From Escherichia coli O157:H7 (GTDB taxonomy: Bacteria > Pseudomonadota > Gammaproteobacteria > Enterobacterales > Enterobacteriaceae): a stretch of DNA of 64,000 nucleotides. How positions within the stretch are numbered: position 1 is the stretch's first letter; each line of letters starts with the position of its first letter. The stretch lies in assembly GCF_013167455.1 (NCBI RefSeq), contig NZ_CP038328.1. The stretch is one strand, 5' to 3'. Below, piece by piece: positions 33,001 through 36,000 of the stretch. The position numbers are program-made.

Positions 33001-36000
33001 TATCATTATTCACCACCAGGCGGGGTGGTGGTGGCACCGCAAAACGGTTAGCCGCTTTTTTCGCCGCGTCACCTTTTGCCGATTTTTTACCGGCATCCCC
33101 TTTTTTGTGGTGCGTGAACTGCGCCAGCTTATAAGCCGCATCCAGCGCCAGCCTGGGGTCGGTATTAATGTTCTCCACCAGAAGACGCCCCATCGCTTTC
33201 ACCGGATCGGGAAGACCGTCCTCCATATACTCAATACCAGGAGATATCACCACGGGCGGTGGCATCTCCGGATTTGTTTCGTCCGGCTGTGGTATTGCAG
33301 CCGCCTCACGGCGACGGGGTTTATCCTCCGGCTCTGATTTTTTCTGCCGGTAAACAGGAACCTCATCCACCTCCACCGTCTCGCACTGTTTACGGGCTAT
33401 AAACGCAAGCACCTCCGGATCTTTTGCCAGCTGCGAGCCTTTAACCCTGGCTGTCTTCGCCGAATAACCGGCGGCAAGGGCTGACGCTGTTTTGTTTTTC
33501 CCGGACATGAGCGCCAGCGCAAATTTTCGTTTTTGCGTTGTCAGCACAGCCTCCTCCCGGGTCCAGAACGCACTCAGCCGGGTATGGTTCAGCCCATTTT
33601 TCCCGGCGTCTCATGCCGCAAATGTTAACTGCTGCCTGGTTAACATTTGCTGAAAAAGCCTGTTAACATTTTTTCCGCACAACAAACTGAATAATAAAGA
33701 TAAAAACCGCAAAAATGCCCGGGCAGCCAGTTAACATGTTAACTGCCCTGAAACGGGAATTTTTTCTCTGCGTGAGAGGGGGCGCGGTGTCCAGGGCGAT
33801 CGTTTTTTTTCGCCGGATGATCCCCCCCGGGTCTGGTCACAGGCCAGTGATTCCGTCGGCCCTGAGCGTGCCATCAGGAAGCTCAGGCAACGTCGGATCA
33901 GGCATACCACTCGCCGCTTCACTCGCTGACTTCTGGCGATGGCATTCAGTACAGAGGGTCCAGAGGTTCGTCTCCTCATTACCACCACCGAACTGAAGTG
34001 CAATGCGGTGATCGAGTTCACTGTCACAAAGGTCAACCACGCGTCTACAGAGACAACAGTGTCCGGCATCCCTCCGCCAGATACGACGTTTGAGGGAAAC
34101 CCGGGCACTGCCACTGACACGACGCTGTTCCCCCCTCAGGACATTTATCCGCCGGGTGTTCAGAGTTTTGATTCTGCCCGGTAACGTACGAAGCACAGCC
34201 ATGTAAAATCCTCGCCATATAGCTTGTCACCAGAGGAAAGAAAATGTCATCGAAAAACCGGCCCCGCAGAACAACAACCCGCAACATCCGATTTCCAAAC
34301 CAGATGATTGAACAAATTAACATCGCTCTTGACCAGAAAGGTTCAGAAAATTTTTCTGCGTGGGTCATTGAATCTTGCCGCCGGGAGCTGGCAGCAGACA
34401 TAAAATATGCCCGTCAGTTGACTATAAAAAAGAATGATACACAGTATGCTCTGCGATGGCTGTTCATATAACTATTTCTTTATATTGCTGAATTTATAAA
34501 AACTCACAGACATTAGCTGTATTAATTCCGAATTGAAATAATCAGCCATATAGAATAAAAATAAAGCATAACAATAATAATCTTCTACCCAATCAGTACA
34601 TTACTGCTGTGACTCCAACACGGCAGTTTTTTTATTGAACAGATTCCAGTTTCTTCCACCATCGCACCGGACGGGCGACCATGAGGGGAGAACGCCGCGC
34701 TCCGTTTACGCGGTAAACCCCGGTGTGTATCGTTTTTGATTATCCCCGCACACTCTCGCAGAGGAGTCTCCCTGTCGGGCTGCGGTCTCTGTTAATGCAG
34801 GAATACGGCGACGATACGGCGCATCAGCAAAACTTAGTTCAGGCACTGAGTGCGGATATAGTCCTGTGCCCCTTCCAGCTGCTTCTGCATTGTCATCAAC
34901 CGTTCTCTGAGGATGAAATAATCCCGTTCAGCGGTGTCTGCCAGTCGGGGGCCGGTTGCATTATCCACGCCGGAGGTGCCGGTGGCTTCACGCACGGTAC
35001 CGGAGCAGGTGGCGTTGATCCGCAGGCGCTTACGACCAGCGGCAACATCAGCACGCAGAGTTTCATTTTCAGCTCTCGCATCGGCTAACTCCCTCGAGTA
35101 TTTTGCATCGAGCGCAGCAACATCACGCTGGCGCACCTGCATGTCAGTAATGGTGGCATTCGCCTGTTCCAGCTCTCTGGCTTTTTTATCGCGCTGCGCT
35201 TTGTAGGTGAGCGCGTTGTCACGGTAATGGTTTGTTGCCAGCCACAGCGCACCACAGCCAACCGCCAGGACAATAATCACCACACACAGAACACGGTTCA
35301 TCTCTCTTTCACCCCACCAGTCCCGATAACGTCAGGACTCGCCAGGCGGTGGAAAAGAAAATGGCAACCAGCATGACTAAAAATGAAATGCCGACAAGTA
35401 CACAGAGGCTCTTCACCAGCGTTATGAGTTTATCTGATATCATTAGCCACCCCATCAATCCGCCTTTGTTATTTTCCCTTTGCCTGTATCAGCCAGGACA
35501 AAATCAATCAGCATATTCGCTTCATTTACCAGCGTACGGATTTTTGATACATGCGCGGCTTTAACCTGTTTCCACTCATTCAGCCCGGTAGCAAACACAC
35601 TGGCAATGTTTTTATCCCGTTTCATGTCAGCACAAGCCTGGTTGAGTTCTTCCATCACGCTCATTTTACGGGGATTAACGACAAAACCCTTCGTCCAGTA
35701 CTCGTAAAGAACATCGTCGCACTCTTCCTGATACCGGATGACCTTATCGCGGATTTCGGGTTTTACTTTGTTGGGATTAATGGTTTGTAGCCAGCCGGCA
35801 AGTTTTCGAAGTGGCATGGACACCATATTGCGTTGTTTCCCATCCTCAGCAACCATAACGATTTCCGTTATAGTTGACGCAAAACGCTGTCTTAACTTAG
35901 CCAACTGTGATTGCCAGGCCAGCCCCATCCCCGCAACGACAGGTTTCATGGGAACGTATGGTTCGCCATTATGGTTAACTACATAAAGAGAGTTGCCGTG

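Follow-up and report, generated by a model that had tools for sequence, protein, structure and literature searches.

Where the DNA of a prophage is cut for packaging, and what its terminase recognizes beside the cut, are questions raised by a cluster of short repeats in a 64,000-nucleotide stretch of Escherichia coli O157:H7 (assembly GCF_013167455.1, contig NZ_CP038328.1; hereafter the window). This window represents a lambdoid E. coli prophage of the Stx type. A first-pass annotation had pointed to five GTTAAC motifs between the genes for an HNH endonuclease and the small terminase subunit (terS), and had read their location as that of cos and of terminase-binding sites in an HK97-type, HNH-assisted packaging module. 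Our analysis, which is comparative as regards DNA binding by TerS, indicates that the spacer between the two genes is probably a cos site, in which the five GTTAAC motifs would make up cosB, the recognition sites of the small terminase.

Five GTTAAC motifs are clustered between the HNH gene and terS

Coordinates and Pfam gene calls confirmed that exactly five GTTAAC motifs lie within 33600-33760, starting at 33624, 33639, 33662, 33730, and 33738, in a spacer of 289 bp between the HNH gene and terS. Their clustering is far beyond chance. The window holds 21 copies in total, and at a background of 16 per ~63.8 kb only 0.03 would be expected per 125 bp. The Poisson probability of five or more copies is 2.5e-10 (~1e-7 after correction for all windows), and the densest 125-bp window contained at most three GTTAAC in 300 dinucleotide-preserving shuffles of the sequence.

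Genome ends of a related phage place the motifs in the cosB position

Only one record in the phage collection, that of Lys8385Vzw (MT225100), proved to have its termini in this region. This phage was sequenced from particles; its TerS is 96% identical to that of the window, and its cos region is nearly identical. PhageTerm assigned it to the cos type, with cohesive 3' ends and the overhang CGCCCCCCCT at the genome end (PMC7946995). The first bases of the record are CTCACGCAGAG and the last are GGACACCGCCCCCCCT, and the minus strand of the window reads through the same junction as GGACACCGCGCCCCCT followed directly by CTCACGCAGAG, the record boundaries aligning to 33776/33777. By homology, the gene strand would be nicked between 33777 and 33776, with 33776 as position +1 of the packaged genome. 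We infer from this near identity that the Lys8385Vzw ends hold for the present prophage too. Mapped ends lying elsewhere would have spoken against the first-pass annotation; those of the relative fall into the very intergenic region that it had named as the expected cos location.

Three other kinds of record were rejected as end markers. The record of phi330 is interrupted within terS, and records derived from prophages have att sites as their ends. In certain Burkholderia phages, the record begins 28-60 bp ahead of a terS with 37% identity; because there is no HNH gene at the other end and the starts may be arbitrary, these records were not used.

With the ends at 33776/33777, all five motifs lie between cosN and terS, which is the position of cosB in lambda. 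Counted on the gene strand from the predicted cut, the motifs stand at +34, +42, +110, +133, and +148 and the start of terS at +230. The interval highlighted by the first-pass annotation was therefore right in part: the repeats are on the terS side, where cosB belongs, but the cut region at 33777-33786 is 17 bp outside the interval, and the repeats, the nearest of which is ~33 bp from the cut site, are not the cleavage site. From the HNH side to the terS side, the elements are as follows.

33822-33828, minus strand: run of seven G on the gene strand (C7 on the plus strand), ending 45 nt before the cut
33777-33786, minus strand: predicted cosN with the 10-nt 3' cohesive end CGCGCCCCCT, homologous to the Lys8385Vzw overhang CGCCCCCCCT
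33755-33793, minus strand: conserved cosN core, TGGACACCGCGCCCCCT before and CTCACGCAGAGAAAAAATTCCC after the cut, -17 to +22, with an A6 tract at +12 to +17 (33760-33765)
33728-33745, both strands: perfect 18-bp palindrome CAGTTAACATGTTAACTG with GTTAAC copies 4 and 5, +32 to +49
33675-33727: AT-rich spacer from the palindrome to R3, with T-tracts ~8-12 bp apart (+62, +71, +79, +91)
33662-33674, minus strand: repeat R3, GTTAACATTTTTT (the gene strand reads AAAAAATGTTAAC), a single direct copy with GTTAAC copy 3, +110
33619-33649: perfect 11-bp inverted pair R2/R1, CAAATGTTAAC-n9-GTTAACATTTG, with GTTAAC copies 2 and 1, +133 and +148

R3 and the R2/R1 pair form three sites of the extended form AAATGTTAAC between +110 and +158, and the palindrome is the proposed proximal dyad site for TerS. 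A lambda-type cosB has at least three copies of one motif, in mixed orientation, between cosN and terS, and the five GTTAAC show this arrangement. The G7 run, 8 nt after the HNH stop codon, is the upstream edge of the conserved cos cassette and may be a cosQ-like element or a positioning element for the large terminase subunit (TerL) or the HNH protein. The R2/R1 pair is the distal edge, its loop and the sequence past it being divergent. The spacing of the T-tracts between the palindrome and R3, where there is also an A6 at +103, suggests a possible intrinsic bend.

Another GTTAAC pair with the 8-bp offset of the cos palindrome (TGTTAACTGGTTAACG) occurs at 53563-53576, in a non-coding part of the early region, upstream of small open reading frames and a gene for an 823-amino acid exonuclease-like protein. 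This pair could be due to chance, an operator, or a secondary site.

The motifs are invariant in class A of the loci that share the cut site

A scan of IMG/VR with the 19-base cosN core GAGAGGGGGSGCGGTGTCC returned 120 viral contigs or loci. Nearly all of them have a G-run ~45-52 nt upstream of the cut, the core, CTCAC, and the A-tract block AGAAAAAATTCCC at +9 to +22; the block is found in every class except the single locus L035. The classes are listed below, with protein identities to the window.

Class A (the window): ~50 loci; five GTTAAC; terS at +230; TerS 90-100%, TerL 96-100%
Class B: 15 loci; dyad TGTTAACGTGTTAACA; terS start inside the dyad (GTG TTA ACA); TerS 33-41%, TerL 57-82%
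Class C (including Salmonella phage FSL SP-016): ~50 loci; imperfect dyad TGTAAACATGTTAACA; terS start ATG TTA ACA; TerS 33-50%, TerL 62-85%
Class D: 6 loci; two or three direct AAAGTTAAAG repeats; terS at +61 or +72; TerS ~25%, TerL ~53%
L035: 1 locus; no repeats; terS at +37; unrelated TerS; TerL 47%

In the 34 distinct class A sequences, none of the 30 GTTAAC columns varies, compared with 93 of the 176 other columns between +23 and +228 (p=2e-9). The palindrome and R3 are invariant throughout these variants, and the cosN core is near-invariant in them.

Classes B and C together comprise 64 loci (44 distinct sequences), with a spacer between the HNH gene and terS of only ~100 bp. Their dyad lies at the same distance from the cut, over the ribosome-binding site and the first three terS codons. 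Codon 2 is TTA in all 43 cases of leucine and codon 3 is ACA in 43 of 44, and neighboring four-fold codons vary freely; we regard this argument from codon fixation as suggestive. Class A has ~190 extra bp (33548-33729) directly after ATGTTAAC, by which terS is displaced to a new start, GTG CTG ACA, without GTTAAC. The extra segment carries the three further GTTAAC copies of the extended form, and the class A dyad is now perfect and non-coding, at a fixed distance to cosN. Because the dyad has been kept without a coding role, the constraint on GTTAAC follows cosN and not the terS coding sequence.

In the window, the ancestral terS start persists at 33666-33737 (minus strand) as ATG TTA ACT and so on, in a frame of 24 codons. 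We rejected the 24-amino acid reading frame from the vestigial ATG at 33737 as a coding explanation, as it lacks a Shine-Dalgarno sequence and its frame is not maintained, being four codons long in satellites. A mobile-element origin of 33548-33729 was unsupported; among the 60 of 1280 matches listed, two of which were looked at closely, the segment occurs only in a phage or satellite cos context. Farther into terS, codons 12-15 (GCG CTG ATG TCC, window ~33514-33503) are nucleotide-invariant in 43-44 of the 44 distinct class B and C sequences and nearly so in class A, and adjoining codons vary at synonymous sites, suggesting that the 5' end of terS may be under a further constraint at the DNA or RNA level. 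For class D, examples are the IMG/VR loci L010, L016, and L095, in which the AAAGTTAAAG repeats lie at +30 to +60 and TerS begins MALTEKMKKF.

Satellite islands carry the same cassette

Satellite islands resembling phage-inducible chromosomal islands (PICIs), which have no HNH, terS, or terL gene, carry the cassette at the island end. This satellite form is present in ~50 of 5426 complete E. coli genomes; two backbones were seen, one next to clpS (locus L009) and one at tRNA-Pro (locus L133). The satellite agrees with the window at all 30 GTTAAC bases, whereas 51 of 133 other bases differ (38%; p=4.5e-6). Identity is 33% upstream of the G-run and 43% from the G-run to the core, rises to 97% in the cosN core with the A-tract and 94% in the palindrome, and falls to 65% in the 33675-33727 spacer, where the T-tract pattern is kept. 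It is 100% in R3, 91% in R2, and 82% in R1, and only 31% immediately past R1. The G-run stands 28 bp past GGTGTCCAG in phages and satellite islands alike, despite flanks that are only 33-43% identical.

Because identity drops outside the G-run and R1, the unit shared by phage and satellite comprises ~210 bp, 33619-33828. Such a unit is as expected for a packaging signal that a satellite shows to the terminase of its helper. We consider it plausible, although somewhat short of probable, that 33619-33828 is a self-contained and horizontally portable packaging signal that PICI-like satellites have captured, with the GTTAAC array setting helper specificity; that an island with two types of cos could be packaged by both lambda-type (5' ends) and HNH/HK97-type (3' ends) terminases; and that the ~190-bp class A segment is a recent expansion of cosB at the displaced terS start.

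The clpS-type island (L009 1674-11500, E. coli Ec-042-T5-MAC, NZ_CP086538.1) is ~10 kb long and lies between clpS and cspD. It encodes an integrase, a helix-turn-helix (HTH) regulator, a YlcI/YnfO protein, an Icd-like protein, a DUF4222 protein, a RepA helicase, and a ClpP-protease/capsid fusion. Its cos copy at the island end (L007 1497-1712) is 75% identical to the window cassette, with all five GTTAAC intact. The tRNA-Pro island (E. coli MS 21-1; L012 530-2300 and L133 9000-10900) has the L009 backbone together with lambda E-like and D-like capsid genes and a Nu1-like gene. The latter lies between two lambda-type cosN sequences, GGGCGGCGACCT at L012 1393 and an inverted copy at 2260, and the GTTAAC cassette of the 3'-overhang type stands at the island end, giving three cos sequences of two unrelated types. 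The GTTAAC cassette is missing from many related islands, whose matches begin at query position 294.

These conservation data bear on two other explanations of the repeats. One is that they are evolutionary debris: a duplication or insertion event at the start of terS (ATG TTA AC) would have copied the start region several times, the copies having no function of their own. The geometry fits such an origin: the first three terS codons of classes B and C correspond to the GTTAAC at +42, the extra segment directly follows that motif, and the ancestral terS start (AAACATGTTAACAGC) is similar to R3 (AAAATGTTAACAGG). Debris would decay, however, whereas the motifs show no variation amid surroundings in which 38-53% of the positions vary, are kept in satellites without terS, and include the outermost repeat, exactly at which homology ends. 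A duplication origin would also be compatible with a present function of the sites. We consider the debris explanation very improbable.

The other is that the repeats control the expression of terS, as a repressor or activator site or as a late-transcript hairpin. An overlap of the dyad with the ribosome-binding site and start codon, as in classes B and C, would permit autoregulation; the inverted pair could form an 11-bp stem, and one promoter-like match is made by the repeats, on the antisense strand. Yet promoter-like matches in the spacer are at chance level (1 found, 0.9 expected), and no terminator, Rfam family, or conserved open reading frame was found there. The stem arms never vary and thus offer no evidence from covariation, the class A palindrome is 190 bp from the real terS start, and satellites keep the array with no terS downstream. 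We consider control of terS very improbable as well.

TerS is the favored reader of the repeats

We compared the terminase proteins with those of HK97. In BLASTP searches, TerL matched HK97 gp2 (23% identity over 461 amino acids, E=6e-11), but TerS showed no similarity to HK97 gp1. A profile of the TerS family searched against the PDB matched entries 21di, 4zc3, 3zqp, 2cmp, and 7joq at E=1e-3 to 9e-3, representing the HTH domain of the SF6, PaP3, and Pam5 small terminases; HK97 was not matched. Only the N-terminal third of TerS matches PF03592. By these profile matches, TerS is of an SF6/PaP3-like class with a predicted N-terminal HTH. Since it is not gp1-like, the mechanism of single-site recognition in HK97 is not simply transferable. 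HK97 TerS has one 15-bp site, from +15 to +29, with an A-tract inside (PMC11331095), and cos cleavage is stimulated by HK97 gp74 (PMC9410871). For PaP3, in turn, repeated cos sub-sites have been suggested as the targets of neighboring HTH domains (PMC7672466).

The TerS proteins of classes A-C have very similar HTH regions and those of class D a different one, in parallel with the change of the repeat. We favor TerS as the likely reader of GTTAAC because the repeats are invariant, are kept in satellites, and co-vary with the TerS class, and because the TerS HTH is of the SF6/PaP3 class. On this view, the G-run, cosN, and the A-tract, which are constant under differing TerS proteins, would serve TerL and the HNH protein or set the shape of the DNA.

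In the mechanism that we propose, a TerS oligomer of the SF6/PaP3 class would bind several GTTAAC sites through its HTH domains, with the 33675-33727 spacer probably bent in the process. TerL and the HNH protein would thereby be anchored at the neighboring cosN to make the staggered nicks, and packaging would then proceed toward terS.

Several observations weigh against assigning the repeats to cosB and TerS. The end positions come from a relative, through software analysis of reads. One GTTAAC is enough in class C, which means that there is no universal requirement for three or four of the five copies. The conservation in classes B and C may be partly coding, and the nearby GCG CTG ATG TCC codons are equally invariant. 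The 8-bp spacing of GTTAAC in the palindrome is tight for two HTH domains on one face of the DNA. In addition, the HNH protein diverges together with TerS in class D, and co-variation cannot tell which of the two proteins reads the repeats. Finally, the conserved A-tract at +12 to +17 could be the true TerS site, as is the +15 to +29 site in HK97.

The last two points lead to a further explanation, in which TerS reads the A-tract block beside cosN (+9 to +22) in the manner of HK97 and GTTAAC binds another factor required for packaging, be it TerL, the HNH protein, or a nucleoid protein of the host that shapes the DNA. The block is kept in all classes but L035, including loci with an unrelated TerS, and its position matches the minimal TerS site of HK97 (PMC11331095). 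The same constancy under unrelated TerS proteins, however, is a better fit to the conserved TerL (46-100% identity) or to DNA shape, and it is the repeat and not the A-tract that changes with the TerS class. Moreover, TerS of the window is not homologous to HK97 gp1. As regards a host nucleoid protein, no match to the integration host factor (IHF) consensus WATCAANNNNTTR with at most one mismatch was found in 33548-33836. We consider this explanation unlikely and retain TerS as the favored reader of GTTAAC.

The site combines features of several packaging systems

To our knowledge, HK97 is the only HNH-type cos phage that has been dissected biochemically. The label of an HK97-type module given in the first-pass annotation holds for the layout, TerL, portal, capsid, and type of overhang, but does not extend to TerS. 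Both systems have the order HNH-cos-terS-terL, homologous TerL proteins, an HK97-family portal, protease, and capsid, and a 10-nt 3' overhang, which is known here by proxy from Lys8385Vzw. The comparison with HK97 ends suggested in that annotation gave a mixed result. A G-run and an A/T-tract are common to both (in HK97, a G10 run ending 42 nt before the right end; here, a G7 run ending 45 nt before the cut; in either case, an A/T-tract 12-30 nt downstream of the cut), but there is otherwise no alignable sequence. HK97 has 49 bp from the cut to terS, one 15-bp TerS site, and no repeats, whereas the window has 229 bp and five GTTAAC. Moreover, the TerS of the window is of the PF03592 HTH type, the two HNH proteins are not BLAST-similar, and in the window protease and capsid protein are fused and followed by the portal gene.

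The array itself resembles lambda cosB (R3-I1-R2-R1, bound by gpNu1) in having several short motif copies in mixed orientation between cosN and terS with an AT-rich stretch between them, and lambda cos likewise exists in versions carried by PICI-type satellites. Lambda differs in its 12-nt 5' overhang, the absence of an HNH protein, a Nu1-type winged-helix TerS (PF07471), and a consensus IHF site, compared with the 3' overhang (that of the relative), HNH protein, PF03592 TerS, and missing IHF consensus of the window. The small terminases of SF6, SPP1 (G1P), and PaP3 share the N-terminal HTH DNA-binding domain, and PaP3 is a cos phage; the similarity is nevertheless weak (E ~1e-3) and confined to about the first 80 residues, the target sequences are unrelated, and SF6 and SPP1 are pac (headful) phages. 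Lys8385Vzw, BP-4795, 2851, 1717, YYZ-2008, and Stx2a_WGPS6 have the same cos region (92-100% identity), with no substantial difference.

The element is of an ordinary kind, and the 10-nt overhang of the relative has already been published. In the literature searched, which was incomplete, we found no account of the array of repeats, of how it arose at the terS start, or of its occurrence on satellites. A full-text search with the overhang sequence led only to eukaryotic papers on unrelated matters, and one for GTTAAC together with terminase and cos gave no relevant result.

The cos region occurs in about one quarter of complete E. coli genomes, and a packaging signal tells which DNA is mobilizable, be it Stx prophages, defective prophages, or satellites. 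For an HNH-dependent 3'-overhang system, the classes also provide a natural series of how an HTH small terminase would read cos, with one site, a dyad, five sites, and a variant with a different repeat; the only solved example that we know of, HK97, has a different TerS and a single site. The presence of the cassette on satellites beside lambda-type cos further bears on a question raised for Gram-negative PICIs, namely why some carry more than one cos.

Gene neighborhood and distribution of the site

The HNH, terS, terL, capsid, and tail genes follow one another in this order on the minus strand. The genes nearest to cos are as follows.

33837..34202, minus strand: HNH endonuclease, 121 amino acids, directly upstream of cos (Pfam PF01844, E=5e-6, above the cut-off)
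32984..33547, minus strand: terS, 187 amino acids, with the start GTG-CTG-ACA at +230 behind GGAGG
31326..32987, minus strand: terL, 553 amino acids, with ATPase and nuclease domains (Pfam PF03354 and PF20441)
31262..29325, minus strand: prohead-protease/capsid fusion, PF04586 and PF05065 in one protein

The HNH gene bears the same label in the records of related phages, and TerS residues 2-57 match PF03592 with 34.3 bits (cut-off 26.1). The protease/capsid fusion is followed by genes for an HK97-family portal (PF04860), head completion, a gp10-like protein, the tail tube, and an HK97-type tape measure. A gene of the DUF3950 (YlcI/YnfO) family at 34244-34471 (plus strand) is the divergent neighbor of the HNH gene and cos, and a gene of the same family lies in the regulatory region of the clpS-type satellite island (L009 8827-9132).

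The region is 99.8% identical over 1 kb to the Stx2-converting phage Stx2a_WGPS6, and many Stx1 and Stx2 siphophages, BP-4795, 2851, 1717, and YYZ-2008 among them, are 92-99% identical to it. The spacer between the HNH gene and terS is present in 1275 of the 5426 complete E. coli genomes, in up to seven places per genome. An unannotated GenBank record of 1570 bp from O157:H7 ATCC 43895 (OR845833.1, Escherichia phage ECO95 1-6-1) contains just the HNH-cos-terS region, at 94% identity. In PPompW-type prophages (LC567822.1; L132 2523-3981), the IS110-family element ISEc20 is inserted exactly at the edge of the C-run/G-run (window ~33822-33826); the HNH and lysis genes past ISEc20 are missing, and tRNA genes and Q come directly next. 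In these prophages, both the upstream element of cos and the HNH protein that would act on it have probably been lost.

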